A stretch of DNA of 64,000 nt. It comes from an uncultured Desulfobacterales bacterium. GTDB taxonomy: Bacteria; Desulfobacterota; DSM-4660; Desulfatiglandales; HGW-15. The stretch lies in contig CAYUBQ010000002.1 in assembly GCA_964443135.1 (NCBI GenBank), forward strand, positions 10,888-74,887, read 5' to 3'. A model generated the notes under the pieces. It made no database searches, was not told the origin of the DNA, and was given only the letters and a program-made list of their open reading frames with translations. A program made the translations under genes and the position numbers. Shown one piece after another: positions 31,250 to 52,365 of this stretch; position 1 is the first letter of the stretch; the number at the start of each line of letters is the position of its first letter.

Positions 31250-31393
31250 CGGTCAGACGGCTCTTTTCTGATTCCGGAGGCAGAACATACGCCCAGGATT
31301 TGCCTTGACACACCGCACCCCGAGGGCGTGCAATGGGAGAAGCAACAGGCACCTGCGACAAACTGGTATCCTGCCTTCACTCGAGGACCGGCC

Positions 31394-32497
31394 ATGCAGA
31401 ACCCGCCCTCTCCGGATCCGATCCGATTTCTCCGGTTCACCATGGACAACCTGCCCATCGGCGTGCTCACCGTGGACGCGAGCAGAAGGGTGACCAGCTT
31501 CAACCCGCAGGCCGAGACCGTCACCGGGTACTCGAAGGAGGAGGTGCTGGGAAGGTTCTGCGGCGAGGTGCTCCAGGGCGGCATGTGCAAGGAACAGTGC
31601 CCGCTGGCGAGCGTGATCCGGAGGCGGGCCCCCATGGTCCAGCTGGAGACCACCATCCGGGACCGCCACGGCAGGACCATCCCGGTCCGTCTTCAGACCG
31701 CCGCGCTGCTCGACGACGACGGCCGGCTCATCGGCGGGGTGGAGACCTTCCAGGACATCACCTACATCAAGGGCCTCGAGCGCGACAAGGCCGCATTCGT
31801 CTCCATGGTCGCCCACGACATGAAGTCGTCGCTCACCGTCATCGGGGGGTTCGCCCGCAGGCTCAGCAAGCCGCGGGTCCGGAAGAACGAGGAGAAGCTG
31901 GGACGGTATCTGGAGATCGTCCTGAACGAGACGGAACGGCTCGAGTCCATGATCCGGGACTTCCTGGAGTTTTCCCGGCTCGAGACCGGATCGCTCAAAC
32001 TGGAGTTCCGCCCCGTGTCCCTGAACGAGGTGATCGAGCAGCTTGCGGCCACCTACCAGGTGCAGGCGGAGCAGCTCGGGATCCGGCTGGAGGTGGGCAC
32101 CGACCCGGAGCTGGGGTCCCTGACCGCCGACGCCGAGCGCCTGAGACGGGTCTTCAAGAACCTCCTGGACAACGCGCTCAAGTTCTCCGACCCCGGGGGG
32201 AGGGTGAGGATCACCACGCAGGACGCGGGCCCCTTCGTGCAGGTCCGCGTCGAGGACGAGGGGGTGGGGATCGAAGAGGCGGAGCTGCCCCACATCTTCG
32301 ACCCCTACTTCCGCGCGAACAACCGGCCCGAGGCGAGCGGTTTCGGCGTCGGCCTCGCCGCGGTCAAAGCGGTGGTGGAAGGGCACGGAGGGCGCGTCGA
32401 GGTGGAAAGCGAGCCGGGACGCGGGTCCGTATTCACCGTCCACCTGCCCAGGGTCCCGGCGCCGGAGGACGCCGCGGCGCAGCCGGCGCGCAGCTAG
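31394..32497 (+). CDS. cytoplasmic PAS-domain sensor histidine kinase
   Basis: PAS domain (LPIGVLTVDASRRVTSFNPQAETVTGYSKEEVLG) with a Cys-rich insert, H-box FVSMVAHDMKSSLT, and N/G boxes. Start at MQNPPSP (31394). Confidence 0.88.
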   Translation: MQNPPSPDPIRFLRFTMDNLPIGVLTVDASRRVTSFNPQAETVTGYSKEEVLGRFCGEVLQGGMCKEQCPLASVIRRRAPMVQLETTIRDRHGRTIPVRLQTAALLDDDGRLIGGVETFQDITYIKGLERDKAAFVSMVAHDMKSSLTVIGGFARRLSKPRVRKNEEKLGRYLEIVLNETERLESMIRDFLEFSRLETGSLKLEFRPVSLNEVIEQLAATYQVQAEQLGIRLEVGTDPELGSLTADAERLRRVFKNLLDNALKFSDPGGRVRITTQDAGPFVQVRVEDEGVGIEEAELPHIFDPYFRANNRPEASGFGVGLAAVKAVVEGHGGRVEVESEPGRGSVFTVHLPRVPAPEDAAAQPARS

Positions 32498-32931
32498 CCC
32501 CGGACCGACTTTTTCATGTAGGACTCCAGGGCCTCCTGGAGGGTGGCCGCCGCGAGGAACGCACAGTGCCGATCCTCTTCCGGAAGACCGCCCAGAATGC
32601 CGAGAATGGCCTCGCCGGAGATCTCCGTGACCTCGTCCGGGCTCTTTCCCAGGGCCAGCTCCGCGGCGAACGACCCGCAGACCGCGCTGGAGCCGCAACC
32701 GTCGGTCCGGTAGGCCGCCTCCGAGACGCGGTCCTCCCGGAGACGCAGGAAGATCTCCATGGTGTCCCCGCACGAACCGGTGAGCCGCCCGTACCCGTCC
32801 GGATTCTCCAGGGCGCCTTCGTATCGGGGGTTGCGCCACCGTTCGTAGGCCACCTCCCCGTAGTCCTGCCTGGCTTCCTCGTAGACCTGCTCCTGCAGGT
32901 CGCGAACAAACGCGTCGAAATCGTCGGCCAC
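32494..32931 (-). CDS. NifU/IscU N-terminal-domain Fe-S cluster scaffold-like protein
   Basis: GSCGDTMEIFL...DGCGSSAVCGS...LPEEDRHCAFLAAATL, the three-Cys IscU pattern. GTG start (complement of 32929-32931) with AAGGAGGA 8 nt upstream. Confidence 0.8.
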   Translation of the reverse strand: MADDFDAFVRDLQEQVYEEARQDYGEVAYERWRNPRYEGALENPDGYGRLTGSCGDTMEIFLRLREDRVSEAAYRTDGCGSSAVCGSFAAELALGKSPDEVTEISGEAILGILGGLPEEDRHCAFLAAATLQEALESYMKKSVRG

Positions 32932-33072
32932 CGTCCTGGTCCTCCTTGATCTGCAGCCGGCCCCGGGGGCCGGCGCCGGTCCTGATGACGATCCATGGTG
33001 CCTGATACTGTTTTGAACTGCAACGCAAATTGATACCATGAAACCGCTCTCGAAACGATCGTGAAACAGGTC

Positions 33073-33101
33073 TTGACAACCATGTGTATACGGTATACAA
33101 A
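33073..33101 (+). promoter_or_regulatory. TTGACA -35 box followed by a perfect 7-1-7 palindrome TGTATACgGTATACA (33085-33099) covering the -10 region: promoter plus operator candidate
   Basis: TTGACA at 33073-33078, with TATACA/TACAAA at spacers of 15-17 nt. The palindrome is exact. Confidence 0.45.
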
Positions 33102-33152
33102 AGCGGTTCTGCATCGCTCTTTACCGTGAAAATACCCCTCGGTGGGCCGGGC

Positions 33153-33222: not shown

Positions 33223-33343
33223 GAAAACCCCTGTTTTCATCAGCGGGGGTGACCGGACGCCGGTCATGGACGTTTGAACCGAAACCCCGCCCGTCTGGAC
33301 AGGCCCCGCATCCTGCCGCCTGCGCTTCCGGAGGTTCGTGCTC

Positions 33344-35131
33344 ATGCTCTTTGACCTGCTCCTGTTCGGCTCTCTGGGCATCTTCCTGCTGGGAACGGCC
33401 TGGAAAATGTTCCCCTGGTTCTCCCGGGGGATCGGACCGGGCTCCCGGGGGATCCCACGGTCCCGAAGGGTCCGCGCCGCCCTTCTCGGCGCCGCCCGGA
33501 CCGTCTTCAGCCGGAACGTTCTGACCGTCTTTCGCGTCGTCCTCGTGGACGGCCTTCTCCAGTGGAGGATCCTCAAGGAGGACCGCCTCCGCTGGGTCAT
33601 GCACTTCTCCGTCTTCGCCGGGTTCATCCTGCTTCTCCTGATGCACGCCCTGGACGACCTGATCACGGCGAACCTGTTCGAATCCTACTACAGCACCGTC
33701 AACCCCTGGTTCTTCCTGCGGGACCTGGCCGGCGTGCTCGTGCTCGCGGGGCTCGCGCTGGCCGTGCTCCGGCGGACCGTCTGGAAGGTCCCCCGCCTGA
33801 GGACCCGGGCGCCGGACGTGATCGCCCTCGCCTTCCTGGCCCTGATCGTGGTCTCCGGCTTTCTGCTCGAGGGCGCCAAGATGGGCTCACACGACGCCTA
33901 CCTGCGCATGGTGGAGGAGTGGGCGGACCCGGACGCCGTCGATGAGGTCCGGGCCCTGGAGAGCTACTGGATCCAGGAGCTCGGGCTCTACGCCACGCAC
34001 CTCTCCCCGCCGTTCTCCGAGGACCGGCTGGCCCAGGGCCGCGAGCTCCACGAGATGAACTGCGCCTTCTGCCACGCCCCGTCCCAGTGGGCCTTTGCGA
34101 GCTACGGGGCGAACCGGGCCATGGCGCCTGCCGCCTCTTTCCTGGACCGGGTGGACGCGACCCTCGTCTTCTGGCACATCCACATCCTCGCCTGCTTCGC
34201 GGGGCTCGCCTACCTGCCCTTCAGCAAGATGTTCCACGTCGTCGCCACCCCAATCGGTCTCGTGGTCAGCAGGCTCACGGACCGGGAGCGCTCCGACGCG
34301 GCCAACGTCGCCACCCGTCAGGCCGTGGAGCTGGACGCCTGCACCCAGTGCGGGACGTGCAGCCTGAGATGCTCCCAGGCGGGTGCGGCCATGGCCATGG
34401 GCAACCCCTACATCCTTCCCTCGGAGCGAATGGCCTGTCTTCGGCGGGCGGGCCTGGGAGGCCGTCTCGAGCCGGCCGAGCGGGAGGCGATCCGCCGGGG
34501 CGCCGTCATCTGCTCCAACTGCGACCGGTGCACGGTGGTCTGCCCGTCGGGCATCAACCTGAAGGAGCTCTGGGTCTCAGTGCGGGAGGAGCTGATCCAG
34601 CAGGGGGACCCCGAGCCCGCCCTGCTCTCGCCGTTTTCCCATCTTCGCGGCCTCCGGAGGGACGATCTGGAGGCGGTGACGGACTACGCCCGTCCCCTGA
34701 GCCGGGCCCTGCACGTCCTCGTCCCCAACGGGAAGGCCCGAGCGCCCGAGGTCGAGGCCCCGCCCCTGGACCTGACGGAGCAACCGGACATGCCGGTGGA
34801 CCCCGACCTGGAGTCGGGGCACTTCGCCGACTGCTTCGGCTGCCGGACCTGCACCTCCGTCTGCCCTGTGGTGGGCAACTACGAGGACCCCGAGCAGACC
34901 CTCGGGCTCCTGCCCCACCAGATCATGTACTGCCTGGCCCTCGGGATGCCGGCCATGGCTTCCCGGTCCCGCATGCTCTGGGACTGCGTCACCTGCTACC
35001 AGTGCGAGGAGCACTGCCCGCAGGGCGTGCGCATCACGGACATCCTCTACACGCTGAAGAATCGCGCCGTTCGGGTCGAGGCAGGCCGCGCTGCGCCTTC
35101 CCCGGCCGAGGAGCGGACCGGGCCGGCCTAG
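33344..35131 (+). CDS. fusion protein: NarI/HdrE/DsrM-like 5-TM cytochrome-b-type membrane domain (with a CXXCH loop) plus a cytoplasmic domain with four CxxCxxCxxxC iron-sulfur motifs (HdrC-like)
   Basis: TM helices with positive-inside loops and a terminal-helix motif LPFSKMFH. Cys motifs are CTQCGTCSLRC, CSNCDRCTVVCP, CFGCRTCTSVCP and CVTCYQCEEHCP. ATG 33344 preferred (GGAGG 9 nt upstream) over the track start at 33338. Confidence 0.8.
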   Translation: MLFDLLLFGSLGIFLLGTAWKMFPWFSRGIGPGSRGIPRSRRVRAALLGAARTVFSRNVLTVFRVVLVDGLLQWRILKEDRLRWVMHFSVFAGFILLLLMHALDDLITANLFESYYSTVNPWFFLRDLAGVLVLAGLALAVLRRTVWKVPRLRTRAPDVIALAFLALIVVSGFLLEGAKMGSHDAYLRMVEEWADPDAVDEVRALESYWIQELGLYATHLSPPFSEDRLAQGRELHEMNCAFCHAPSQWAFASYGANRAMAPAASFLDRVDATLVFWHIHILACFAGLAYLPFSKMFHVVATPIGLVVSRLTDRERSDAANVATRQAVELDACTQCGTCSLRCSQAGAAMAMGNPYILPSERMACLRRAGLGGRLEPAEREAIRRGAVICSNCDRCTVVCPSGINLKELWVSVREELIQQGDPEPALLSPFSHLRGLRRDDLEAVTDYARPLSRALHVLVPNGKARAPEVEAPPLDLTEQPDMPVDPDLESGHFADCFGCRTCTSVCPVVGNYEDPEQTLGLLPHQIMYCLALGMPAMASRSRMLWDCVTCYQCEEHCPQGVRITDILYTLKNRAVRVEAGRAAPSPAEERTGPA

Positions 35132-35186
35132 GGGACGGTACAGTGAAACGACCCCCAGGGGGTCCCGAGACAACACGGAACCAGAC

Positions 35187-36020
35187 ATGAAGACCTATGC
35201 ACTCTACCTGGGCTGCAACATCCCCGCGCGGGTCCAGTCCTACGAAACGGCGTCCCGCGCGGTCCTGGAGAGGCTCGGGGTTCGGCTCCTCGACAGTCGG
35301 GAGTTCGCCTGCTGCGGATACCCGCTGAGGAACCTGGACCGGGGCGCCTATCTCCTCTCCGCCGCCCGCAACCTGGCCCTGGCCGGCCGCACGGGACACG
35401 ACATGCTGGTCCTGTGCAGCTGCTGCTTCGGCTCCCTCAAGGCCGCGCAGCACCAGCTCCGCCGTTACCCGGAAGCGCGCAGGGAGGCGGACCGGAGGCT
35501 CCGCCGGGAAGGTCTCCGTTACGACGGCGACATCGAGGTCAAGCACCTTCTGAGCGTCCTCCGGCACGACGTCGGGCTGGAGGCCCTGAAGACCCACATC
35601 AGACGTCCATTCGAAGACCTCAGGATCGGGGCGCACTACGGGTGCCACGTCCTTCGGCCCAGCCACGTCACGGAGTTCGACGACCCCGTCGCACCCACCC
35701 TGTTCGAGGCCCTCGTCGAGGTCACCGGGGCCCAGTGCGTCGAGTGGGACCCGCGGATGGACTGCTGCGGGGCGCCCCTGCTGGGCGTGAACGACGAGCT
35801 CAGCCTGGACCTGACGCGCGGCAAGCTGAGGAAGGCCGCCGAGGCCGGGGTGGACCACCTGTGCACGGCCTGCCCCTACTGCCAGCTTCAGTTCGAAACG
35901 GTCCAGCGGAAATGGATCGCGGGAAACGGAAGCGGCACACCGGCGGTGGCCTCCCTGGTCTACCCCGAGCTGCTGGCCCGCTGCATGGGCCTGGAAGACG
36001 AACGGTTGAAACGGCCATAA
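35187..36020 (+). CDS. hdrB: heterodisulfide reductase subunit B-like (two CCG domains)
   Basis: LGCNIP...ACCGYP...LCSCC and YGCHVL...DCCGAPLL...CTACPYC. Confidence 0.88.
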   Translation: MKTYALYLGCNIPARVQSYETASRAVLERLGVRLLDSREFACCGYPLRNLDRGAYLLSAARNLALAGRTGHDMLVLCSCCFGSLKAAQHQLRRYPEARREADRRLRREGLRYDGDIEVKHLLSVLRHDVGLEALKTHIRRPFEDLRIGAHYGCHVLRPSHVTEFDDPVAPTLFEALVEVTGAQCVEWDPRMDCCGAPLLGVNDELSLDLTRGKLRKAAEAGVDHLCTACPYCQLQFETVQRKWIAGNGSGTPAVASLVYPELLARCMGLEDERLKRP

Positions 36021-36074
36021 CCCCCCGGGGGAGCCCTTCGAGGGGCGAAGCCGGGGTCTCATCCGGAGCGGAAC

Positions 36075-39000
36075 GTGAAACGCGAAGAAACAGGCGCGGT
36101 ACTGGTTGTTGGAGGGGGAATCACCGGAATGCAGTCGGCGCTGGACCTGGCCAACTCCGGTTTTTTCGTCTATCTCGCGGAGCGATCGAGCTCGATCGGG
36201 GGAATGATGTCCCAGCTGGACAAGACCTTCCCCACCAACGACTGTGCCATGTGAATCATCTCGCCCAAACTGGTCGAGGTCGGCCGGCACATCAACATCG
36301 AGCTGCTCACGCTCACCGAGGTCAAGGAGATCACCGGGGAGCAGGGGGACTTCCAGGTCCGCGTGGTCCGGCACCCCCGGTACGTGGACGTGGACAAGTG
36401 CATCGCCTGCGGCGCCTGCACCGAGAAGTGCCCCCGCAAGGTCCCGGACGAGTACAACGAGAGCCTGGTCCCCAGAAAGGCGATCTACGTGAAGTACGCC
36501 CAGGCCGTTCCCCTCAAGTACGCCATCGACCCGGAGCAGTGCATCAAGCTGACCCGGGGGAAGTGCGGGAACTGCGCCAAGGTGTGCCCCACCGGGGCGA
36601 TCGACTACGAGGACACGGAGAAGGAGAACGTCCTTCGGGTCGGCGCCGTGGTGCTCGCCGACGGATCGGAGACCTACGACCCCGGGGGGCACGACACCTA
36701 CGGCTACAGGAAGAACCCCGACGTGGTCACCAGCATCGAGTTCGAACGGATGCTCTCCGCCTCGGGTCCCAGCGGGGGACACCTGGTCCGCCCTTCGGAC
36801 GGGAAGGAGCCGTCCCGGATCGCCTGGCTCCAGTGCGTGGGATCCAGGGAGCCGGCCCTGGGAAACCGCGGCTACTGCTCCGGCGTCTGCTGCACCTACG
36901 CGGTCAAGGAGGCGGTGCTGGCCAAAGAGCACTGCGGGGGGGACCTGGACGCGGCCGTCTTCTACATCGACATCCGAACCACCGGAAAGGACTTCGAGCG
37001 CTACTACGAGCGCGCCAGGGAGGAGCAGGGGGTCCGCTTCGTCAAGGCCAGGATCTCGCACCTCGCCAGGCGGAACGGGTCGAACCTCATTCGCTACGTG
37101 GACGAAGCGGGCAAGCGGGTCGAAGAGCCTTTCGACATGGTGGTCCTCTCCGTAGGCCTCGGCGCGAACCGGAAGAGCGCCGAGCTGGCCGAGACCCTGG
37201 GCGTCCAGATGGACCCCTACCGGTTCGTGAGCACGAGCAGCTTCCACCCGGTTCGGACCTCGAGGCCCGGGATCTACGTCTGCGGCGCCCACCAGGCGCC
37301 CAAGGACATCCCCTCCTCCGTGGTGGACGCCAGCGCGGCCGTCGTCGAGGTGGCCGCCGATCTGGCCGACACGCGCTGGACGCTCACCCGGACCGCCGAG
37401 CTCCCCGAGGAGCGGGACGTGCGCGGCGCCCCCCCGCGGATCGGGGTGTTCGTCTGCTGCTGCGGCACCAACATCGCCGGGGTCGTGGACGTTCCTTCGG
37501 TCGTGGAGTACGCCCGGTCCCTGCCCGGGGTGGCCTACGCGGAGGAGAACCTGTTCAGCTGCTCCCAGGACACCCAGGACAAGATGACCCGGATGATCCG
37601 GGAAAAAGGGCTCAACCGGGTGGTGGTGGCCGCCTGCACGCCCAAGACCCACGAGCCGCTCTTTCAGGAGACTTTGACCAGCGCGGGCCTGAGCAAGTAT
37701 CTCTTCGAGATGACCAACATCCGCAACCAGTGCTCCTGGGTACACCGGGACCAGCCCGAGGCCGCCACGCAGAAGGCCAAGGAGCTGGTCGCCATGTCCG
37801 TGGCCAAGGCGAGCCGCCTCACCCCCCTGAGCGAGCCGGTCCTGGAGATCACCCCGACCGCCCTGGTCGTCGGGGGCGGCATCGCCGGCATGGAGGCGGC
37901 GAGGAGCCTCGCCAACCAGGGGTACCCCACCTACCTGGTCGATCGGAACCGGCGTCTCGGGGGGCAGGCCCTGACCCTTCACGAGACGTGGAGAGGGGAG
38001 TCGATCCAGGCCTATCTCTCCGAGCTGATCGAGGACGTCGAGCTGCACCCCGGGATCCAGATCTTCCTGAAGGCCGAGGTGGACGAGGTGGACGGGTTCG
38101 TCGGCAACTTCCGGACCATGATCCGCCAGGGCCGCGAGAGCCGGATGATCGAGCACGGCGTGACCATCGTGGCCACCGGCGCGCTCGAGTACAAGCCGCG
38201 CGAGCACCTCTACGGGGAGCACCCCAACGTGGTCACCGGACTGGAGCTCCAGGACCGGCTGATCCGGGAGGACCCCTCGCTTCGCGAAGCCCGGACCGCG
38301 GTGTTCCTCCAGTGCGTCGGGTCCCGCATCCCGGAACGCCCTTACTGCTCCAAGGTGTGCTGCACCCAGTCCATCAAGAGCGCGCTGGCCCTGAAGGGGA
38401 TCAACCCTTCCATGCGGATCTTCGTCGTCTACCGGGACATGCGGCCCTACGGGCTGAGGGAGGACCTGTACCGGAAGGCGAGGGAGGCGGGCATTATCTT
38501 CATCCGCTACAGGTCGGAGGAGGGCTTCGACGTGGTCTTGGAGGACGGGCGACTGCGGACGGCCTTCACGGACACCGGCCTGCACCGGAAGATGGAGATC
38601 CACCCGGACCTCCTGGTGCTGGCCTCCGCCGTGGTCCCGAGCGAGCAGTCGCGGCTCGCTCAGCAGTTGAAGATCTCCCGGAACGACGACGGGTTCTTTG
38701 CGGAGGCCCACGTCAAGCTTCGCCCGGTCGACTTTTCCACCGAAGGGGTCTTTGTCTGCGGGCTGAGCCACGCCCCCAAGCCCGTGGACGAAAGCATCGC
38801 CCAGGCCCAGGCTGCGGCGGCCAGGGCTGCGACCCTTCTTGCGGCCGGGCGGATCCCGGTGAGCGGAACGGTGGCGGCCGTGGATCCGGATCTGTGCAGC
38901 ATGTGCGGAGTATGCGCTTCCATCTGCCCCTACTCCGCTCCCGGCGTGGACGAAAAGACCGGCAGGATGAGCATCCAGAGCACCCTGTGCAAAGGCTGCG

Positions 39001-39089
39001 GGCTGTGCACAGCCTCCTGCCGGTCCGGGGCGATCCGGTTGAACGGCTTTGACAACAACCAGATCCTGGCGATGATCGAGCAGGTGTGA
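36075..39089 (+). CDS. hdrA: tandem HdrA-type FAD/Fe-S flavoprotein (QmoA-like module fused to a full HdrA/QmoB-like module), with in-frame TGA at 36252-36254 read as selenocysteine
   Basis: GTG 36075 (GGAG upstream) opens the same frame as track ORF 36363..39089. N-terminus is [19 protein letters not shown]...[20 protein letters not shown] second FAD fold is [19 protein letters not shown]. Also present are YCSGVCC and YCSKVCC motifs and four ferredoxin-type CxxCxxCxxxCP motifs. Confidence 0.75.
36258..36280 (+). promoter_or_regulatory. candidate bacterial SECIS hairpin downstream of the in-frame UGA
   Basis: AUCUCGCC / CAAACU loop / GGUCGAGGU, an 8-bp stem with one G-U pair and one bulged U, beginning 4 nt after the UGA. 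Confidence 0.35.
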
Positions 39090-39128
39090 CCGGGGCACGC
39101 CGCTCCGCCGGGGGAAAGGGAGGGCGCC

Positions 39129-39584
39129 ATGATCGAGATCATCCAGCTCAAGAGCATCCGCATGCTCGGCAATCTCACGGACGAGATGCTCGAGAAGATC
39201 CAGCCCGTCACCACCCTCGTGGATTTCCAGGCGGGGGAGTACATCTTCCGGGAGGGGGAGTACGCGGAGTACCTCTACTCGATCCTGGACGGGGAGGTGG
39301 GGCTGGAGACCGAGAAGAACCCTTCCAAACGCATTCTCGTCACCAAGATCAGCCGGTGCATGACCCTGGGCTTCTCGGCCCTCCTGGACACCGAGTACCG
39401 AAAGTACGTCGGGTTCGCCAAGGCGATCACCGACGTGAAGCTCTTCGCCTGGAAGGGCGTGGAGCTGGAGAAGCTCTTCGTCAACGACTACGAGATGGGG
39501 TTCCTGATCATGCGGCGCATCGCAAACACCATCCAGAAGCGACTCCAGATCACCAAGACCCAGCTCGTGGACATCTACCAGTAG
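39129..39584 (+). CDS. cyclic-nucleotide-binding (cNMP/Crp-type beta-barrel) domain protein without an HTH
   Basis: FQAGEYIFREGEYAEYLYSILDGEVGLE...RCMTLGFSALL, the cNMP-binding fold. At 151 aa there is no DNA-binding domain. Confidence 0.75.
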   Translation: MIEIIQLKSIRMLGNLTDEMLEKIQPVTTLVDFQAGEYIFREGEYAEYLYSILDGEVGLETEKNPSKRILVTKISRCMTLGFSALLDTEYRKYVGFAKAITDVKLFAWKGVELEKLFVNDYEMGFLIMRRIANTIQKRLQITKTQLVDIYQ

Positions 39585-39591
39585 CGCCTCG

Positions 39592-39620
39592 GCGGGGCGG
39601 GCCTCCAGGGTCCGCCCCGC
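39592..39620. terminator. GC-rich hairpin between convergent genes (possible bidirectional terminator)
   Basis: GCGGGGCGG (39592-39600) pairs with CCGCCCCGC (39612-39620) with an 11-nt loop. No U-tract. Confidence 0.3.
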
Positions 39621-39630
39621 TCTCTCGGGC

Positions 39631-41001
39631 CTACTCCTCGAAAGCGTCCAGGATCTTTGCGCGCCTTCGGAAGAACCCCGTACTCAACATGAGGTACACG
39701 AACCCGATTGCCACCCAGATGCCGCCCGCCGTCTTGGCCCTCGGGGAGAGGTTCACGAACAGGATCAGGCAGGTCAGGAAACCGAAGAACGGCACCAGCA
39801 GGTAGCGAACCGCGTCCCATCCCTTGCGTCTCTTCTGCCGGATGAAGTAGTGCGCGATCACCGACAGGTTCACCAGCATGAACGCAGAGAGGGCCCCGAA
39901 GTTGATCATGGTGATGATCGTCTCCATGTCCTGGGTCGCGCCGATGACCGCGATTCCGGCCAGGATCAGCAGGCTGTAGACAGGGGCCTTCGTGCGGGGA
40001 TGGAGATAGGCGAAGATCCGCCTGGGAAGCGCCTCGTCCCGGCCCATGCCATACAGGACCCGGGCCACCCCGGCCTGGGAGTCGATGGCGTTCGCCAGGG
40101 CCCCGGCGATCACGGAGATGCTCACGAAGGTGACGAGCGTTTGCCCTCCCGCCCGGCCGATCGCCTCGAAGAAGGCGGTGTCGGCGGACTCGAACAGGGT
40201 CCAGTCGGGGTGGACCGACTGGGCGCAGTAGGCCTGGAGGATGAAGAGAAAGGCCATGAAGAAACAGACGGAGATCGTGCCCCTGGAGAGCGTCTTCCCC
40301 GGCTCGTGGACCTCCTCGGCCAGGGTGGTCATGGCATCGAACCCCATGAAGGAGAAGCATGCGATGGAGGTGCCCAGCAGGAGGGCGCCCATCTCGAAGG
40401 TCTCGGGGTTGTAGAAAGGCAGCGTGGTGAACCCCCAACCCACGCCCTGGGCGAGCGAGGTGAAGGAGGAGACCACCGTGTACAGCACGGCCAGGAGCAT
40501 GAAGATCACCAGGAAGGCGTTCACCCGGGAAACGCTCTTCACGCCGAGGAGGTTCACCACGGTGATGAGGACGATGGCCGTGACCACGATCCCCCAGTAG
40601 GGCAGGCTCGGGAACATCATCTGCACGAAGATCCCCACCACGATGTAGTTCAGGATGGGAAACAGGGCATAGTCGAGCAGGATGGTCCATCCGGCGAAGA
40701 ACCCGGCATACGGGTGAATGGCGCGCTGGGTGTAGGTGAAGGCGGAACCCGCGATGGGGTAGGCCCCGGCCATCTGGCCGTAGCTGTAAGCGGTGAAAGA
40801 CATGGGAATCACGGCGATGAGGTAGGCCAGGGCCATGTGCCCCATAGAGGCGGCCGTGACCGCACCGAACACGATCACCGGCGCGATGGGAACCATCATA
40901 CCCACCCCGTAGATGAACACGCTCCAGAAACCCAACTCCCGCTTGAGCTCCTGCTCGTAGCCGAAACGCTCCAGGTTTTCGGTGCCTCTGTTCTCGCCCA
41001 T
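39631..41001 (-). CDS. APC-superfamily amino acid/polyamine permease
   Basis: 12-TM profile with N-terminal LKRELGFWSVFIYGVGMMVPIAP...AYSYGQMAGAYPIAGSAFTY, typical of the APC family. Confidence 0.85.
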   Translation of the reverse strand: MGENRGTENLERFGYEQELKRELGFWSVFIYGVGMMVPIAPVIVFGAVTAASMGHMALAYLIAVIPMSFTAYSYGQMAGAYPIAGSAFTYTQRAIHPYAGFFAGWTILLDYALFPILNYIVVGIFVQMMFPSLPYWGIVVTAIVLITVVNLLGVKSVSRVNAFLVIFMLLAVLYTVVSSFTSLAQGVGWGFTTLPFYNPETFEMGALLLGTSIACFSFMGFDAMTTLAEEVHEPGKTLSRGTISVCFFMAFLFILQAYCAQSVHPDWTLFESADTAFFEAIGRAGGQTLVTFVSISVIAGALANAIDSQAGVARVLYGMGRDEALPRRIFAYLHPRTKAPVYSLLILAGIAVIGATQDMETIITMINFGALSAFMLVNLSVIAHYFIRQKRRKGWDAVRYLLVPFFGFLTCLILFVNLSPRAKTAGGIWVAIGFVYLMLSTGFFRRRAKILDAFEE

Positions 41002-45811: not shown

Positions 45812-46651
45812 ATGAAATTGAAACCAAGCCTCGACACCTGGCTCTGCTTCTACGGGCTGGAGGCCCCTCCCGAGGCCTACGCCCGGTTCGACCTGGTGGT
45901 CTTCGACAGCACCTGGCACCCCGACCTGGTGCGGAGGGAGGACGGGGGGCCCGTGATCCTGGGCTACCTGAGCGCGGCCGAGGTCCTGGAGGGGGGGCCC
46001 TTCTGGCCCCGGGCGGCGGGGCGGGACATCCTGGTCCGGAAGAAACCCCAATGGAACTCCTGGGTCCTGGACCTGCGCGACCCGGCCTGGCGGGATTTCC
46101 TGGTCCGCGAGGCGGTGCCCGGGATCCTGGAGCAGGGCTTCGACGGCATCCTCCTGGACACCCTGGACTCGGCCCTGGCCCTGGAGCTCTGGACGGACCC
46201 GGCCCGCTGGCGCGGGACCCGGGAGGCCGTGATCCGGCTGGTGGAGGAGATCCGCCGCTCCCGGCCGGACACGCTGATCGCGGTCAACCGGGCGCTCCCG
46301 GTCCTGGGGGAGATCGCCCCCTCTCTGGACCTCCTGGTCCTGGAGGGCCTCTCCAGTGTCTACGGAGGCCCGGGGACCGGGTACGTGCCCGTTGCGCCGG
46401 AGGAGCGGCGGCGCCTCCTCGAATGGCTGGAGGCGGGCCGGGCAGAGCGGCCGGGGCTCCCGGTCCTCACCCTGGACTACGCCCCGGAGGACCGGCCGGA
46501 CCTCGTGAACAACGCCGTGGCCCGGGCCCGGCGGAAAGGATTCGTCCCCTATGTCAGCACGCTCGAGCTGGACCGGATCTACCGTCACACGCTGGACGGC
46601 GGCTGCACTCCTGGCGGCGCTCCTCGCCCTTCCGGCGGCGGCGCCGGCTGA
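45812..46651 (+). CDS. TM1410/GH114-like putative glycoside hydrolase (PelA hydrolase-domain analogue), no obvious signal peptide
   Basis: WLCFYG...VILGYLSAAEV...WNSWVLDLRDPAWRDFLV...GFDGILLDTLDSA, the TIM-barrel pattern of this family. Confidence 0.65.
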   Translation: MKLKPSLDTWLCFYGLEAPPEAYARFDLVVFDSTWHPDLVRREDGGPVILGYLSAAEVLEGGPFWPRAAGRDILVRKKPQWNSWVLDLRDPAWRDFLVREAVPGILEQGFDGILLDTLDSALALELWTDPARWRGTREAVIRLVEEIRRSRPDTLIAVNRALPVLGEIAPSLDLLVLEGLSSVYGGPGTGYVPVAPEERRRLLEWLEAGRAERPGLPVLTLDYAPEDRPDLVNNAVARARRKGFVPYVSTLELDRIYRHTLDGGCTPGGAPRPSGGGAG

Positions 46652-48668
46652 GGTCCCTCTCCAGAGAAAGGTGCTGGTGCTCCTGGACCGGGAGGGCCCC
46701 CGGGCCCATCTGGAGAACATCGTCTACGAGACCTGCCAGATGGTGCTCAACTACTACGGCATGCTGCCGGAGTACCGGAACGTCGACGCCGGCCCGCTTC
46801 CCGGCGACGAGGCCATGGCCGCCTACCGGGGCGTGATCACCGCCTTTTCCGGGAGCGGGCCCGAGGACTCGAAGGCGTGTCTGGCGTGGCTCCTCCGGCA
46901 GATGGAGGCCGGCCGGAAGCTGATCGTGCTCGGCTCCCTCGGCGTGCCGGCGTCCGGGGACCCCGAGTCCGAGGCGGACCGCCTGGCGAGCGACGTCTAC
47001 GGCGGGCTGGGCCTCCGGCACGAGGGGAACCACACCGGCGTCCGGTCCCTTCTCCGGTACGCACGCAAGGACCCCGCAGGGATGGAGTTCGAGCGGGACC
47101 TCCCCGCCTTTCCGGAGATCTACGAGCAGTACGTGCCCACGGACGAGGACCTCCACGTCTTTCTGAGCGTCCGTCGGATCGACCGGCCCGAGTCCGAGAG
47201 CGCCGTGGTCGTCACGGGACCCGCCGGCGGTTTCGCCATGGTGGAGTACATGCGGTGGCAGGACCCGGTCACCTTCAAGAAGCAGTGGTACCTGGACCCG
47301 TTCCGGTTCTTCCGCGAGGCCCTGGGCCTCGAGTCCGCGCCCGCTCCCGACCCCACCACCCTGAACGGCCTCCGGGTGGCGATCTCCCACGTGGACGGCG
47401 ACGCGTTCAGCGGCCTCTCCCGCATCGACGACGACCAGCGCCTGTGCGGGGAGGTGATCCGGGACCGGGTCCTGGAGCGGTTCGACTTCCCCGTGACGGT
47501 CTCGGTCATCACCGGGGAGGTGGCCCCCGAGGCCCTGGGGAGCGAGCGGTTGAAGGAGCTCGCCCGGGAGATCTTCGCCCTGCCCAACGTGGAGCCTGCG
47601 AGCCACTCCTACTCCCACCCGTACTACTGGGACCCCGCCTTTTCCGGCAAGAGCCGCTACCACCGGCTCCACGGGATCGAGATCCCGGGCTACGCGTTCG
47701 ACCCGGCCGTGGAGATCGACGGGTCCGTGGCCTACATCAACCGGGAGCTGGCCCCGCCCCACAAGCCCTGCCGGGTGTTCCTCTGGACCGGGAACTGCGA
47801 GCCCCGGGCCTCGGACCTGGCCCGGTGCGACCGGCTGGGGCTCCTGAACATGAACGGGGGCGACACGCTGTTCGACGAGCTGTCCGACTCCTACACTTCC
47901 GTGGCCCCCTACTACCGGAACGTCCGGGGGGAGATCCAGGTCCACACGGGGCAGGCCAACGAGACCATCCTCACCAACCTGTGGGAGGGTCCCTATCAAG
48001 GCTACCGGAACGTCATCACCACCATGGAGCGGACCGGCTCGCCCCGCAGGGTGGCCCCCATCGACATCTACTACCACTTCTACAGCGCCGAGTACCCGGC
48101 GTCCCTCGAGGCTCTCCAGGACGTCTACGCCTGGGCCCTCGGGCAGGAGACCGCCCGCATGTTCACCTCCCGGTACCTGGAGATGGTGCAGGGATACCTG
48201 GACGCAGGCATGCGTCGGCTCGGGCCCGGCCGCTGGGAGGTTCGGGACTACGGCGCCTGCACCACCGTCCGGTTCGAGGACCCGTCCCTCCGGGTGGACC
48301 CGGGCCGGTCGGAGAACGTCCTCGGGTGGATCCGGGGGCCCCAGGGGCTCTTCGTCTCCCTGGCGCCCGACCGGGAGCGGGCCGTGGTCCAGCTGTCGGA
48401 GAACGCCGTCCCGCCCCGGGAGGCCCCACCCTGCGTGCGAAAGGCCGGCGGGCGGGTGGAAATCGTCGGGAGGGAGGAGAACCGGCTGTCTCTCCGGTAC
48501 CGGGGCTTCGGCGAGGGGATGATCCAGATCGCCGGGCTGGAGCCCGGCCGGACCTGCACGGTCTCGGGCTCCGCCCTGGGGGAGAGCGGGTTCCGGCGCG
48601 CCCCCGACGCCGACGGAACCCTGACCCTGAGCCCCGTCTTCACGGGCACGCTGGAGGTCTCATGGTGA
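46551..48668 (+). CDS. secreted polysaccharide deacetylase-like protein (CE4-type motifs; PelA deacetylase-domain analogue)
   Basis: Signal peptide WTAAALLAALLALPAAAPA. ISHVDGDAF (Asp-Asp-type motif 1) and SHSYSHPYYW (H-x-x-x-H motif 2). Overlaps the preceding gene by 101 nt in another frame. Confidence 0.65.
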   Translation: MSARSSWTGSTVTRWTAAALLAALLALPAAAPAEVPLQRKVLVLLDREGPRAHLENIVYETCQMVLNYYGMLPEYRNVDAGPLPGDEAMAAYRGVITAFSGSGPEDSKACLAWLLRQMEAGRKLIVLGSLGVPASGDPESEADRLASDVYGGLGLRHEGNHTGVRSLLRYARKDPAGMEFERDLPAFPEIYEQYVPTDEDLHVFLSVRRIDRPESESAVVVTGPAGGFAMVEYMRWQDPVTFKKQWYLDPFRFFREALGLESAPAPDPTTLNGLRVAISHVDGDAFSGLSRIDDDQRLCGEVIRDRVLERFDFPVTVSVITGEVAPEALGSERLKELAREIFALPNVEPASHSYSHPYYWDPAFSGKSRYHRLHGIEIPGYAFDPAVEIDGSVAYINRELAPPHKPCRVFLWTGNCEPRASDLARCDRLGLLNMNGGDTLFDELSDSYTSVAPYYRNVRGEIQVHTGQANETILTNLWEGPYQGYRNVITTMERTGSPRRVAPIDIYYHFYSAEYPASLEALQDVYAWALGQETARMFTSRYLEMVQGYLDAGMRRLGPGRWEVRDYGACTTVRFEDPSLRVDPGRSENVLGWIRGPQGLFVSLAPDRERAVVQLSENAVPPREAPPCVRKAGGRVEIVGREENRLSLRYRGFGEGMIQIAGLEPGRTCTVSGSALGESGFRRAPDADGTLTLSPVFTGTLEVSW

Positions 48669-51268
48669 GCCCGGAGAATGCCGGGAAGGAGCTGGACCCG
48701 GCCACGGAACCCACCGGATCCAAAGCCGCTTCCGGCTACAACCGCCTCTCCCTGATGCGGTTCCGGGCGTGGCAGATTCTCCTCGTGCTGCTGGTGCTGG
48801 CCGGGGTCTCCTTTCTCCTGTTCCCGCGCGAGCGGAGGCTCGTCGACTTTCACCTGGAGCGGGGCCGGACCCGGGACGCCCTGGTCGAGCTCGACCGCAT
48901 GCTGAGGAAGAGGCCGACCGACCCGGCGCTCCTGGAGCTCGCGGCCGAGACCCGCTTTCGAGCCGGCGACATGGAGGAGGCGATCCGCCTGCAGGAGCAG
49001 GCCGCCCGGCTCTCCCCGGGGGACAAGAGCGCCTGGGAACGGCTCGCCCGGTTCCACGAGTGGAGCCGGAACCCGGCGGAGGCCCTCAGGGTCTACGAGC
49101 GCATCGCCTCCCTGGAGCCCGCGGACCGGGCGGCCCGGGAGAAGATCATCGAGTACGCCCGCTACCTGGGGCGCACCGACCTGGAGGCTGCGGCCGTGGC
49201 GAGCCTCCTGGAGCACGGCGAGGAGCCGGGCCCCGGGGAGGAGCCCCTCCTTCGGGAGCTGACCCGGACCCTGAAGGCCCTGGCCGGGGAGCGAACAGCC
49301 GGTGGGGAGGATCCCCTGCTCGACGAGCTTCTGGTCCGGCTCCACCTGGTGCGATCGGACCTCCTCGAGGAGCGGGGCGAGACCGGGATCTCCGAGGCGG
49401 CCCGGACGGACGCGGCGGAGGCCGCCCTCCACTTCTTCCTGGTGAACGGCCGGCTGGACGACGGCCGAGCCTTCGGCCGGCGTCTGGACCGGAGTCTCCA
49501 GGAGGGCGTGGCCTTCCGCCGGACCTGGGTGGACCTCCTCCGCTGGAACGGGCTCCCGGAGCGTGCCCTGGCCCTGCTGGACGAACTCCTCCAGGAGGAG
49601 CCCGGGAACCGGGAGCTCCTGCGCCTCGCCGGGGAGATCGCCGCTCGGACCGGAAACGTCCGGCGGCTCGCCCTCTCGCTCGAGGAGCAGCTTCGGCTCG
49701 ACCCGGAGTCCGAGAGGCTTCGGGCCTCCCTGGCCGAGCTCTACCGGTTCTCCGGCGATCCCGGCCGGGCCGTTTCCCTGTACGAGGCCCTCCACCGGGA
49801 TCACCCCCGGAACCGGGCCTACCTGGACGCCATGCTTGCAGCGGCCGAGGACGCCGCCGACCCCGCGATCAAGGTGCGGGCCGCGGATTTGGCGGCCGGT
49901 GTGGATCCCCGGGACGCCGACCTCCTCGAACGGCGGGCGGAGCTCTACCTGGCCGCGGAGAAGCCGGGAAAGGCCTGGCCCCTCCTGAGCGTTCTGGCCG
50001 GGCGGGCCGGGGGGGACGAGAAGGCGGTCCGGAGGATGCTCGAGGTGGCCGGGTACACGGACGATCCGGGGACCCTGAAGAAGGCCCTGTCCCAGGCCCT
50101 CTCCCTGAGGCCGACGGACCGGGACCTGCGCCTGGAGGCTGCGGACGCCTTCCTCTGGCTGGAGGGGCCGGAGCGGGCCTACCGGGCCCAGCTCGAGCTC
50201 GTGAAACAGGGCGGCGCCACGCGAGAGGACGTGTTCCGTCTGATCGAGCTGGCCCTGTTCACGAACCGGCCCGAGAACGAGCGGGAGGCCGTGACGCTGG
50301 CCGCCCGGCGGCTCCGGGGACCGGAAGTGCGCGTCCTTCGCGACCGCGCCGCGCAGCTCCCGGAGGGCCTCTCGGACCAAGAAATGCTCGCGGCCGTTCG
50401 GACCTACCTGGATCGGCACCCCGGGGACACCGCCTTCCGGGACCGCCTGATCCGGCTCTACATCGAGTCCGGACGCCCGGGCCGGGCCGCGCCCCTCCTG
50501 GCCGACCGGTCCGAACGGTCCCCCGGCGACCTTCAAAAGGCCCTGGACGCGGGGGAGGCCTATCTCCAGGCGGACCGGCTGAAGCAGGGCCTTCCCTACT
50601 TCGAACGGGCCCTGGCCCTCGACCCGGGGAACGCGGCTCTCCAGAGACGGCTGGTGACCTACCACGGCTGGCTCGGGATGCGGGAGGAGCAGATCGCCGG
50701 GCTGATCCGGCTCGAGGAAGAGGGCCTCCTGGAGCCCGGGGAGCGGACCCGGCTGGCCGGGGCCCTCCTGGAACGGGGAGAAGGGGAACGCGCCCTGGAG
50801 ATCCTCCGGCCTGTGGAGGACCGGGACCCCCTGCCGAAGGAGGGAGGGATCCTCCTGGCCGCGGCCTACGACGCCGCCGGGCAGCGGGAGCGGGCCCTCG
50901 CCGTTTACGAGAGGCTCGCGCGGGACCACCGGGACGACCCGGCCCTCCTGGCCGAGCTGGGGGACCGGGCCCTCTGGCTGGACCGGCTGCCCGCCGCCCT
51001 GGCATTCTACGAGGCGGCCCTGCGGCTCGAGCCGAAGAACCTCCGCGCGCTCAAAGGAAGCGGCCAGATCTACGCCTGGAACAACAACCCGGAGCGGGCC
51101 ATCGCCCGGTTCGAGGCCTACAACCGGCTCGAGCCGGACGACTTCGAGGTGCGGTACCAGCTGGGGGAGCTCTACTTCGCGAACGAGCGGAAAGGTGCGG
51201 CCTTCAAGGAGTACCGGAAGACCCTGGGCCTGATCGACCGGAGGAAAAAGGCCGTCACTCCTCCTTGA
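48662..51268 (+). CDS. membrane-anchored multi-TPR protein (PelB N-terminal TPR-scaffold analogue)
   Basis: One N-terminal TM (WQILLVLLVLAGVSFLLF) followed by about 800 aa of TPR hairpins. ATG 48662 overlaps the deacetylase stop (ATGGTGA). It is the in-frame tail of track ORF 46877..51268. Confidence 0.7.
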   Translation: MVSPENAGKELDPATEPTGSKAASGYNRLSLMRFRAWQILLVLLVLAGVSFLLFPRERRLVDFHLERGRTRDALVELDRMLRKRPTDPALLELAAETRFRAGDMEEAIRLQEQAARLSPGDKSAWERLARFHEWSRNPAEALRVYERIASLEPADRAAREKIIEYARYLGRTDLEAAAVASLLEHGEEPGPGEEPLLRELTRTLKALAGERTAGGEDPLLDELLVRLHLVRSDLLEERGETGISEAARTDAAEAALHFFLVNGRLDDGRAFGRRLDRSLQEGVAFRRTWVDLLRWNGLPERALALLDELLQEEPGNRELLRLAGEIAARTGNVRRLALSLEEQLRLDPESERLRASLAELYRFSGDPGRAVSLYEALHRDHPRNRAYLDAMLAAAEDAADPAIKVRAADLAAGVDPRDADLLERRAELYLAAEKPGKAWPLLSVLAGRAGGDEKAVRRMLEVAGYTDDPGTLKKALSQALSLRPTDRDLRLEAADAFLWLEGPERAYRAQLELVKQGGATREDVFRLIELALFTNRPENEREAVTLAARRLRGPEVRVLRDRAAQLPEGLSDQEMLAAVRTYLDRHPGDTAFRDRLIRLYIESGRPGRAAPLLADRSERSPGDLQKALDAGEAYLQADRLKQGLPYFERALALDPGNAALQRRLVTYHGWLGMREEQIAGLIRLEEEGLLEPGERTRLAGALLERGEGERALEILRPVEDRDPLPKEGGILLAAAYDAAGQRERALAVYERLARDHRDDPALLAELGDRALWLDRLPAALAFYEAALRLEPKNLRALKGSGQIYAWNNNPERAIARFEAYNRLEPDDFEVRYQLGELYFANERKGAAFKEYRKTLGLIDRRKKAVTPP

Positions 51269-52277: not shown

Positions 52278-52365
52278 GGTTCACGGTCCTTGGGGTGGTC
52301 TTGTCCGGGGAACGTATGGTTTCGTCATCCCCGCGTGTGGATCCTGTCCTTTTTGACCCTCGAGG

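Follow-up and report, generated by a model that had tools for sequence, protein, structure and literature searches.

A predicted membrane-bound heterodisulfide reductase relative that joins an EMO-type cytochrome subunit to HdrB and a BamE-type fused HdrA

Introduction

It is an open question how anaerobes that live near the thermodynamic limit link menaquinone and periplasmic cytochromes to ferredoxin, a question that concerns sulfate reducers, syntrophs and the partners in interspecies electron transfer. The known flavin-based bifurcating heterodisulfide reductase (Hdr) complexes are soluble; for Qmo, confurcation at the membrane has long been suspected but, to our knowledge, never shown; and class II benzoyl-CoA reductase reaches menaquinone through an electron-transferring flavoprotein (ETF) and ETF:menaquinone oxidoreductase (EMO). 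Here we describe a gene set that bears on this question. It lies in a 64,000-nucleotide stretch of DNA (the window) from an uncultured Desulfobacterales bacterium (GenBank assembly GCA_964443135.1, contig CAYUBQ010000002.1, positions 10,888 to 74,887) and consists of a gene for a membrane subunit (gene 1), an HdrB-like gene (gene 2), a gene for a fused HdrA (gene 3) and a gene for a cyclic nucleotide monophosphate (cNMP)-binding-domain protein (gene 4). The four genes fill positions 33344-39584 on the plus strand, as had been noted in a first-pass annotation made from the letters of the window.

The logic of the locus had been likened to that of Qmo. The overall likeness holds, but the nearest relatives proved to be others: the membrane part is closest to EMO/EtfD and HdrDE, and the fused HdrA to BamE. 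SaEMO, the EtfD homologue of S. aciditrophicus (2026 preprint), has five helices and its N-terminus outside; its proximal haem is held by His87 and His251 and its distal haem by His233, and a second stacked haem lies near Ala101. The non-cubane clusters of EMO pass electrons to the haems and then to menaquinone. BamE is a fused HdrA dimer of about 1000 amino acids with permuted domains, seven clusters and a Cys59-Cys62 pair, in which the first module carries the bifurcating FAD and the second a non-bifurcating one (bioRxiv 10.64898/2026.04.10.717634). BamE bifurcates, its high-potential electrons running via BamD and ETF to menaquinone, and the non-cubane clusters of BamD act as plain electron relays on the way (bioRxiv 10.64898/2026.04.10.717634). 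A selenocysteine (Sec) form of BamE is known in Desulfococcus multivorans. Qmo itself has been seen as HdrABC and HdrED reshuffled, and QmoAB-HdrBC and QmoAB-HdrD variants exist (PMC10504309). Finally, HdrF1/F1' of Desulfobacterium autotrophicum HRM2 is split into two genes and sits with glpAB.

The locus described here appears to work like a merger of EMO/HdrDE, which would supply the membrane part, with BamE/HdrABC, which would supply the flavin part, so that a BamE-type flavoprotein, HdrB and an EMO-type haem domain are united in one predicted complex. The earlier supposition that this is not a named complex agrees with what we found: the full-text literature that we searched held no named complex of this architecture, although a prior description may exist, and the nearest mention, made in passing, concerned a HotSeep-1 complex between HdrA and a haem c/CCG protein (PMC10553843). 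The reading that we prefer, and hold with modest confidence, is that the locus encodes a membrane-bound Hdr relative in which flavin-based bifurcation, or the reverse process, would take place and one of the branches would connect to the membrane.

The membrane subunit

Translation of gene 1 most likely starts at ATG 33344, which has the sequence GGAGG 10 nt upstream; homologues begin MLF or MVF, and an alternative GTG lies at 33338. Residue numbers for the membrane subunit are those of the 597-amino-acid GTG reading throughout and are two higher than in the ATG numbering. Its sequence and a structural model point to a NarI/EMO-type five-helix cytochrome domain followed by two cytoplasmic domains that would each bind two [4Fe-4S] clusters. 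The first-pass annotation had seen a NarI-like five-helix membrane domain joined to four iron-sulfur (Fe-S) motifs, and this was borne out. Pfam Nitrate_red_gam (PF02665) matched with 29.8 bits against a cutoff of 22.9, together with several 4Fe-4S dicluster families, and hydropathy gave five hydrophobic segments. All 16 cysteines of the four CxxCxxCxxxC motifs were invariant in a family alignment of 28 membrane-subunit sequences (48-83% identity) and were kept in 58 to 65 of 65 more diverse representatives (33-51% identity). NCBIfam returned sub-threshold matches only (QmoC, HdrC, GlpC, SdhB, TfrB, TmcB/C and HmcF).

The membrane domain went undetected by sequence searches of the PDB and was found by fold search alone. 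An AlphaFold2 model made with the 28 sequences had a predicted local distance difference test score (pLDDT) of 57.8 and was set aside; a rerun with 121 sequences reached a pLDDT of 74.7 and a predicted TM-score of 0.70 and was used instead. A Foldseek search with this model ranked M. smegmatis EtfD first among solved structures (9OJN; E 4.6e-6 over 499 aligned columns); next came HdrC chains and NarI (1Q16_C; probability 0.99, TM-score 0.53 on the target).

Two pairs of histidines, His89 with His103 on helix II and His282 with His300 on the last helix (V), were invariant in the 28-sequence alignment and kept in 63 to 65 of the 65 diverse representatives; these pairs would hold b haems. The four residues are collinear with His87, Ala101, His233 and His251 of SaEMO, His103 standing in place of Ala101, and the helix V histidines are 18 residues apart, as are His233 and His251 in SaEMO. 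The first of the two cubane dicluster domains gave weak matches to the SdhB, TfrB, TmcB and HmcF iron-sulfur models, and its profile matched SdhB chains. It is retained in fused EMO-like relatives, which lack the second domain, and we take it to be the counterpart of the EMO linker domain beside the proximal haem. The second domain matched solved HdrC chains (E 1.7e-10 with the single sequence, 2.6e-14 with a profile), and the NCBIfam HdrC model and the N-terminus of the QmoC model fell on it as well; by these matches it appears to be a true HdrC homologue.

Like EMO/EtfD, the subunit begins with a five-helix haem domain of the NarI family whose N-terminus would lie outside and whose C-terminus would lie inside. 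In both, an HdrC-like cubane domain comes next on the cytoplasmic side, and non-cubane (CCG) clusters provide the cytoplasmic entry. Here, however, these clusters belong to a polypeptide of their own, HdrB; the membrane protein carries an additional dicluster domain, the true HdrC-like one; and the partner is a fused HdrA rather than ETF. Membership in the EMO/EtfD/HdrF group was considered and rejected, given the split-off CCG part, the extra cubane domain and the lack of ETF genes nearby in the window.

A further difference, which went unnoticed in the first-pass annotation, concerns the loop between helices IV and V. This loop is about 50 amino acids longer than that of SaEMO and carries a CxxCH motif. 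Both the motif and Met191 were invariant in the 28-sequence alignment, and each was found in 64 of the 65 diverse representatives. Met191 is a candidate axial ligand, and together with the CxxCH it forms a candidate site for a covalent haem c. The loop is acidic (15 D/E versus 6 K/R), whereas the loops after helix I (13 K/R versus 3 acidic residues) and helix III (4 versus 0) are rich in K/R, and the orientation given by these charges agrees with the positive-inside rule. The Fe-S domains are necessarily cytoplasmic, which would place the CxxCH loop on the periplasmic face, and the collinearity of the histidine ligands with SaEMO, whose topology is solved (N-terminus out, C-terminus in), supports the same orientation. 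A probable covalent haem c inside a NarI-family subunit is the specific new feature of this gene set.

What the loop might do is suggested by one variant. In an Hmc-linked relative of 503 amino acids (locus L018, described below), exactly the CxxCH loop is gone and nothing else. Since the loop is lost only where Hmc components are present, it would seem to handle electron exchange at the outer face; this could be exchange with cytochromes c, or the loop could form part of a quinone site.

The HdrB and HdrA subunits

Gene 2 had been read as an HdrB with two CCG domains, and Pfam indeed found two CCG stretches (E 4.7e-22), while solved HdrB chains matched at 2.5e-52. Both CCG motifs (CX31-39CCX31-36CXXC) are complete, with Cys10, 42, 43, 77 and 80 in one and Cys153, 193, 194, 226 and 229 in the other, which would provide the full ligand pattern for two non-cubane [4Fe-4S] clusters. 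The score against TIGR03288 was 209 bits, under the cutoff of 345, so gene 2 encodes a relative rather than an orthologue of methanogen HdrB.

Solved HdrA matched gene 3 in three stretches (E 1e-188). Residues 9-377 align with HdrA 154-517 and form an FAD domain into which a ferredoxin domain is inserted; residues 445-624 align with HdrA 3-182, comprising an N-terminal-type domain (445-590) and the start of a second FAD domain; and residues 832-1002 correspond to HdrA 481-650, the end of that second FAD domain and the C-terminal ferredoxin domain. In a self-alignment the two modules were 30% identical, and both contain thioredoxin-reductase-like FAD domains. The Cys57/Sec60 pair and the inserted ferredoxin domain occur in module 1 only, and a CVGSR...C...CC cluster motif occurs in each module. 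These results uphold the earlier description of one polypeptide with two HdrA modules and Sec in the first, with the refinement that the modules are complementary: the idea of two complete HdrA copies was rejected on the three-stretch match and the self-alignment. The cysteine map predicts seven [4Fe-4S] clusters and two FAD.

By comparison with its published description, BamE of Geobacter metallireducens has the same build, and we would classify gene 3 as a BamE-type fused HdrA pseudo-dimer. Both proteins are fused HdrAs of about 1000 amino acids with two FAD domains, each beside a CVGSR...C...CC motif, and seven clusters; both have a cysteine pair at the first FAD (57/60 here, 59/62 in BamE) and a Lys after the CC motif; and in both, electrons would leave via a CCG-type partner towards menaquinone. 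They differ in the partner, which in the window is HdrB together with a membrane-fused HdrC-like domain rather than soluble BamD, and in the link to the membrane, which would be direct here and not through ETF and EMO.

The relation to the methanogen complexes HdrABC-MvhAGD and Fdh-Hdr is one of homologous parts in a different assembly. Homologues of HdrA, HdrB and HdrC match the solved chains at the E values given above, Sec or Cys occurs at the same CxxC position, and relatives of the window locus carry MvhD and Fdh genes. In the window, however, HdrC shares its chain with a predicted haem-bearing membrane domain, a fused pseudo-dimer takes the place of the HdrA homodimer, and the operon encodes no MvhD or hydrogenase; a donor module typical of HdrABC-Mvh appears instead in related loci, as MvhD with Sec, Fdh or an FrhB-like protein. 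Coenzyme M/coenzyme B metabolism is not expected in the host bacteria.

The Sec codon and its hairpin

Codon 60 of gene 3 is a TGA at the position of the second Cys of the HdrA CxxC (CSMC), and a short hairpin that could serve as a Sec insertion sequence (SECIS) begins 18 nt after the start of this codon. Among 69 homologous genes in the fetched loci, 56 have TGA at this position and 13 have TGT or TGC. The 18-nt hairpin sequence was identical in all 56 TGA genes, whereas in 12 of the 13 Cys-codon genes it varied at synonymous sites in both loop and stem. The fold energy of the hairpin is -10.2 kcal/mol. No Rfam model matched a SECIS here. When the 60 nt downstream of the UGA were folded by plain minimum free energy, the result lacked significance (z -0.29) and the hairpin did not emerge from it. 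The argument therefore rests on comparative conservation, which gives good evidence that the hairpin is a SECIS element.

Conservation and variants

Related loci were fetched with the membrane subunit as the query (11 from genomes and 80 from metagenomes), and more were obtained through look-ups of the individual proteins; those named below carry L numbers. The order membrane subunit-HdrB-fused HdrA was found in 64 of the 67 loci with at least 1.5 kb of downstream sequence and held down to 47% membrane-subunit identity. Such recurrence is not due to chance, and the expectation that the three core genes are conserved together is well founded, although the same does not apply to the proposed four-gene set, as the cNMP gene is limited to one clade. 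The fused HdrA is the best conserved of the trio (76-97% identity where the membrane subunit has 62-83%). There are more than 2300 homologues of the membrane subunit, with 149 clusters at 50% identity and E of at most 1e-30, and at least 539 metagenome stretches were confirmed. Homologues in the genome scan came from metagenome-assembled genomes (MAGs) only, the closest being Desulfatiglandales-type MAGs, and curated libraries give the gene set no specific name. Taken together, these comparisons of sequence and gene order support well the view that this is a real, widespread module of sulfate-reducer-like bacteria, and its wide occurrence makes it a concrete and abundant candidate for membrane-coupled bifurcation.

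Several clades add genes to the trio. Seven to nine loci have MvhD, with a Sec of its own, and a 289-amino-acid Fe-S protein downstream, and five have an FrhB/FdhB-like protein downstream. In L013, FlpD, an Fe-S protein and a molybdopterin formate dehydrogenase lie upstream. The MvhD (FlpD) gene downstream of the trio in L021 (L021:7302-7826) has an in-frame TGA in the motif VGG-U-HVGDC, so these variants have two selenoproteins in one cluster.

In L018 (L018:531-11275), a contig like that of Desulfobacterium sp. N47, an Hmc-type operon encoding a 529-amino-acid multihaem cytochrome c, a Fer4_11 protein, NrfD and a DVU_0533-like protein has the trio directly behind it, plus one gene. This trio consists of the 503-amino-acid loop-less membrane subunit, a CCG protein and a Cys-type fused HdrA, and it is followed by an FrhB/FdhB-like protein. 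By its gene content, L018 appears to be an Hmc variant in which HmcE/F has been replaced by the trio.

Other loci combine the membrane subunit and HdrB with something other than HdrA. A betaproteobacterial MAG (L011:4958-14685) has a membrane subunit of 34% identity that keeps the CxxCH, along with HdrB but no HdrA; upstream of these two genes are those for GlpA- and GlpB-like flavoproteins, and an ABC transporter follows. The arrangement suggests a replacement of GlpC, and the HdrF1/F1' of strain HRM2 resembles it in being split and in its glpAB setting. Behind the membrane subunit and HdrB of L086 (L086:6408-10988), the place of HdrA is taken by a NuoE-like [2Fe-2S] protein and a NuoF/NfnB-like fusion of 1059 amino acids, which we read as a different, NADH-linked flavin module on the same membrane anchor. 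On this comparison the membrane module appears to be a portable membrane terminal for different flavoproteins.

Single-chain relatives of 706-717 amino acids form a sister group, and those in L099 (L099:2476-11793) and L100 (L100:6001-14124) have 707-717. Such a chain combines a CxxCH-bearing membrane domain with a single cubane domain and a pair of CCG domains, and a homology search with this fused type returned generic protein names only. In L099 and L100 the neighbors include genes for GCV_H (lipoate-binding), LplA, a radical-SAM protein, TusA, DsrE and DsrH, a context that is typical of the sulfur-oxidizing sHdr system and suggests a membrane-bound sHdr-like variant.

The fused HdrA also occurs apart from the membrane subunit. 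In L017 (L017:2729-10021), Sec-type and Cys-type paralogues lie 1.2 kb apart, without a membrane partner and adjoining Glu_synthase, EamA and flavodoxin-like/SCP2 genes, which shows that the fused HdrA family has further, different contexts. In the Desulfobacterales genome CP070697 (L012:10657-12231), a strong fused-HdrA match spans residues 5-522 only, covering module 1 and some of the N-terminal-type domain, and gene calling put the end at 12230; the variant may be truncated, the gene may be a pseudogene, or the assembly may be at fault.

Proposed mechanism and alternatives

On the preferred reading, a mid-potential donor would reduce the flavin, from which one electron would run downhill to the membrane while the other would be pushed onto ferredoxin; in relatives, the donor arrives via MvhD, Fdh or FrhB-like modules. 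The high-potential branch would lead from the FAD of module 1 over an HdrA cluster to the HdrC-like domain, and from there either to the non-cubane clusters of HdrB or, by way of the first dicluster domain, over the proximal haem and one or more distal haems to the haem c, ending at menaquinone and/or periplasmic cytochromes c. The low-potential branch would lead from FAD through the ferredoxin domains to ferredoxin. In the reverse direction, menaquinol or periplasmic electrons, together with reduced ferredoxin, would reduce a mid-potential acceptor. The first dicluster domain would lie over the proximal haem, as in EMO, and the HdrC-like domain would bind HdrB and contact the fused HdrA, as HdrC does in HdrABC. 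We place the membrane at the high-potential end and ferredoxin at the low-potential end because the membrane module is shared with GlpAB-like and NuoEF/NfnB-like flavoproteins and because the clusters of EMO and BamD feed menaquinone.

A number of points weigh against this proposal. The haems, FAD and clusters are read from motifs throughout, the haem c assignment depends on the predicted topology, and the NCBIfam equivalog cutoffs were missed for HdrA, HdrB and HdrC alike. A Lys lies five residues after the CC motif in both modules (Lys278 and Lys768), and since module 2 keeps its Lys, the sequence cannot tell which flavin bifurcates. Neither MvhD nor any other donor module is encoded in the operon, which lacks the third terminal that bifurcation calls for, and with HdrB and the haems on one branch the trio could work without bifurcation. 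By established potentials, menaquinol (about -75 mV) would not be a feasible sole donor for the reduction of ferredoxin, and the direction of electron flow would thus depend on the partners.

A bolder form of the proposal, which we put forward tentatively and regard as rather doubtful, is that the complex would be the first flavin-based bifurcating enzyme to serve as a transmembrane wire in its own right. The membrane subunit would have three haems, two of them at b-type sites and the third a covalent haem c in the inserted periplasmic loop, and would take electrons straight from periplasmic cytochromes or menaquinone to a BamE-type flavin, where they would be split, or merged with ferredoxin and the thiol/disulfide couple of HdrB. 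If true, Desulfobacterota would have a direct and reversible coupling between membrane or periplasm and low-potential ferredoxin that needs neither Rnf nor Ech, and the cNMP-domain protein would be an allosteric switch in one clade.

The evidence for an outward-facing haem c could also be read as pointing to electron import of the Hmc/Tmc kind, a possible though not a probable alternative in which periplasmic cytochromes c, fed from H2, formate or direct interspecies transfer, would reduce the haem c, the b haems and then the fused HdrA with no involvement of menaquinone, and HdrA would split the electrons to ferredoxin and a thiol acceptor at HdrB (DsrC or another disulfide). Hmc, Tmc and DsrMKJOP have a NarI-type cytochrome b with a cytoplasmic Fe-S/CCG protein as their inner module, as does the window set, which differs in adding HdrA; in its common form, one CxxCH loop in the membrane subunit replaces the Hmc-style periplasmic cytochrome. 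Import would account for the invariant CxxCH and Met and for the loss of the loop exactly where HmcA-D-like genes precede the cluster. HdrB keeps all ten cysteines of catalytic HdrB, and the energetics, judged from established potentials, would fit a donor at about -300 mV, between ferredoxin and the disulfide. A comparable idea has been raised for the HotSeep-1 complex of HdrA with a haem c/CCG protein (PMC10553843). However, the loop-bearing module also serves GlpAB-like dehydrogenases and EMO-like fused proteins, where a quinone is expected, the closest structures (EtfD/EMO and NarI) are quinone enzymes, and there is no DsrC or periplasmic cytochrome gene near the cluster in the window. The absence of a donor module in the operon and the fact that membrane subunit and HdrB reproduce the cofactor set of HdrDE/EMO would suit a plain menaquinol:disulfide (or thiol:menaquinone) oxidoreductase without bifurcation, in which the fused HdrA would be a ferredoxin- or thiol-linked entry and the complex a ferredoxin:menaquinone or ferredoxin:disulfide reductase; the non-cubane clusters of EMO and BamD are likewise plain relays. 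We consider this unlikely. HdrA is more strongly conserved than the membrane subunit and retains the features that mark a bifurcating HdrA/BamE, namely an inserted ferredoxin domain, the Cys/Sec pair and a Lys (Lys278) behind the CC motif, and relatives add MvhD, Fdh or FrhB-like donors, as in bifurcating Hdr complexes.

Two further explanations would assign the locus to a known pathway, and membership tests bear on both. With Qmo the locus has in common HdrA-like flavoproteins and a membrane cytochrome b fused to an HdrC-like Fe-S domain, and its hosts are Desulfobacterota, so that it might feed menaquinol electrons to APS (adenosine 5'-phosphosulfate) reductase in the manner of QmoABC, or reduce DsrC in the manner of DsrMK, during sulfate respiration. 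The earlier statement that Qmo lacks a CCG subunit is right for canonical Qmo but not for the QmoAB-HdrBC and QmoAB-HdrD variants (PMC10504309), and the existence of CCG-bearing variants speaks for this explanation. Yet the QmoC model NF038018 scored 64.3 bits against a cutoff of 300, and residues 496-579, in the C-terminal Fe-S part, matched model positions 17-93; with the match at the N-terminus of the model, the domain order is reversed here, in line with the earlier statement that QmoC has its Fe-S domain N-terminal to the membrane domain. The window subunit also has two dicluster domains where QmoC has one, and beside it stand HdrB and a single fused flavoprotein, which has no FlpD/MvhD-like C-terminal domain among the 25 best Pfam families listed. 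There is no aprBA neighborhood, and neither the surroundings of the cluster in the window nor the gene tables read for related loci contained apr, sat or dsr genes. QmoABC membership was rejected on these grounds (model score, domain order, single fused flavoprotein, no Apr neighbors), as was that of DsrMK and that of Hmc/Tmc (the TmcB, TmcC and HmcF models gave marginal scores only), and a role of the Qmo or DsrMK type is now largely refuted and very improbable. The BamE-like build of gene 3 and the Desulfatiglandales-type MAGs among the closest relatives would fit the high-potential (BamDE-like) half of a ring reductase of the class II benzoyl-CoA reductase type with its catalytic and input modules encoded elsewhere, and Desulfatiglandales includes degraders of aromatic compounds. 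No genes like those for BamB, C, F, G, H or I, however, lie beside the cluster in the window or in the gene tables or flanking ORFs read for nine related loci, and clustering of the flanking open reading frames (ORFs) across loci turned up no Bam-like gene. The invariable partner is a membrane protein, whereas class II benzoyl-CoA reductase is cytoplasmic and hands its electrons to ETF. Membership in that enzyme was rejected for want of Bam partner genes, and we think this explanation very unlikely to apply.

The cNMP-domain protein

That a stand-alone cNMP-binding protein follows gene 3 was also confirmed: the Pfam cNMP_binding domain matched gene 4 with 44.1 bits (cutoff 27.5), and the gene starts 39 nt after the end of gene 3. 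The best solved match was 3MDP, a 142-amino-acid stand-alone cyclic nucleotide-binding (CNB)-domain protein. Gene 4 has the cNMP_binding domain only, without a C-terminal helix-turn-helix, and a regulator of the CRP/FNR type was therefore rejected. Its phosphate-binding cassette reads GFSAL...RKY rather than GELAL...R[ST]A. The gene was found in 10 related loci (68-94% identity), all in the clade with at least 56% membrane-subunit identity, and its product, a clade-specific accessory, is probably an adaptor or a modulator that senses a ligand.

A 140-amino-acid stand-alone cNMP-binding-domain protein, 24% identical to that of the window, is encoded in L100 (L100:1401-3820, minus strand), directly beside the genes for ETF alpha and beta and near an EMO-like gene. 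Stand-alone CNB-domain proteins may thus recur beside such redox modules.

Locus layout and neighboring genes

The features of the locus are collected in Table 1. Third-position G+C is 0.87-0.94 in all four reading frames, a level typical of real genes, in a window of about 67% G+C. The gaps between genes 1 to 4 are 55, 54 and 39 nt long and unstructured (fold z -0.5, 0.0 and +1.5), whereas the hairpin after gene 4 is strong (-35.2 kcal/mol, z -3.65; none of 200 shuffles was as stable) and likely marks the end of the transcription unit. A sole strong hairpin after gene 4 and short, unstructured gaps before it would fit one four-gene transcription unit.

Table 1. Coordinates of the features in and around the locus (window positions).
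Feature	Position	Strand	Basis or remarks
Sensor histidine kinase, PAS-HisKA-HATPase	31328..32497	+	Pfam
Fe-S scaffold protein, NifU_N-like, divergent	32494..33114	-	Pfam NifU_N, 81 bits
Gene 1, membrane subunit	33344..35131	+	Pfam, NCBIfam, family alignment, AlphaFold2 model, Foldseek
Loop of ~93 amino acids between helices IV and V	33884..34162	+	Residues 183-275; predicted to face the periplasm
CxxCH (Cys242, Cys245, His246)	34061-34075	+	In the IV-V loop of the membrane subunit
First cubane dicluster domain	34310..34612	+	Residues ~325-425; Cys335/338/341/345, Cys392/395/398/402
Second cubane dicluster domain, HdrC-like	34805..35092	+	Residues ~490-585; Cys499/502/505/509, Cys550/553/556/560
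Gene 2, HdrB-like subunit	35187..36020	+	Pfam CCG, NCBIfam, solved-HdrB matches
Gene 3, fused HdrA	36075..39089	+	1004 amino acids, GTG start; translation, solved-HdrA matches, self-alignment
Sec codon TGA	36252-36254	+	Codon 60; aligns with the second Cys of the HdrA CxxC (CSMC)
Candidate SECIS hairpin	36270-36287	+	CUGGUCG-AGGU-CGGCCGG; begins 18 nt after the start of the Sec codon
Gene 4, stand-alone cNMP-binding-domain protein	39129..39584	+	151 amino acids; Pfam cNMP_binding
GC-rich hairpin after gene 4, before the convergent permease gene	39583..39632	+	RNA fold versus shuffles

A scan for sigma-70 and terminator consensus sequences returned one promoter-like site and no terminator on the plus strand. 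The site (39049-39076; TTGACA, 16 nt, GATGAT, with 10 of 12 matches) lies in the 3' end of the HdrA gene, 53 nt ahead of the cNMP start codon, and on this consensus match it could be an internal promoter for the cNMP gene. Scans for RNA genes gave no Rfam match and no tRNA.

A gene for a PAS histidine kinase lies upstream in 14 loci, the window included, and one for a response regulator in 8; the kinase is probably an associated regulator outside the core. The NifU_N-like gene keeps its position in L001, L003 and L006, and another NifU_N gene is found near the L018 cluster, which makes for a weak tie to the gene set. By Pfam, the neighbors of the cluster in the window have no relation to redox metabolism. 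Upstream, beside the kinase and the divergent NifU_N-like gene, are an Opp-type ABC transporter and a class IV aminotransferase, and downstream are a convergent amino-acid permease, a CN-hydrolase, a GntR regulator and a Pel-type polysaccharide locus. Further downstream are two long ORFs with overlapping ends, at 46509-48668 (plus strand) and 48248-51367 (minus strand). Third-position G+C is high in the two ORFs, and neither matched a Pfam family. They adjoin the Pel-type exopolysaccharide locus, which lies at about 51255-55546 and encodes PelG, a DUF3492 glycosyltransferase and a GH114 protein.

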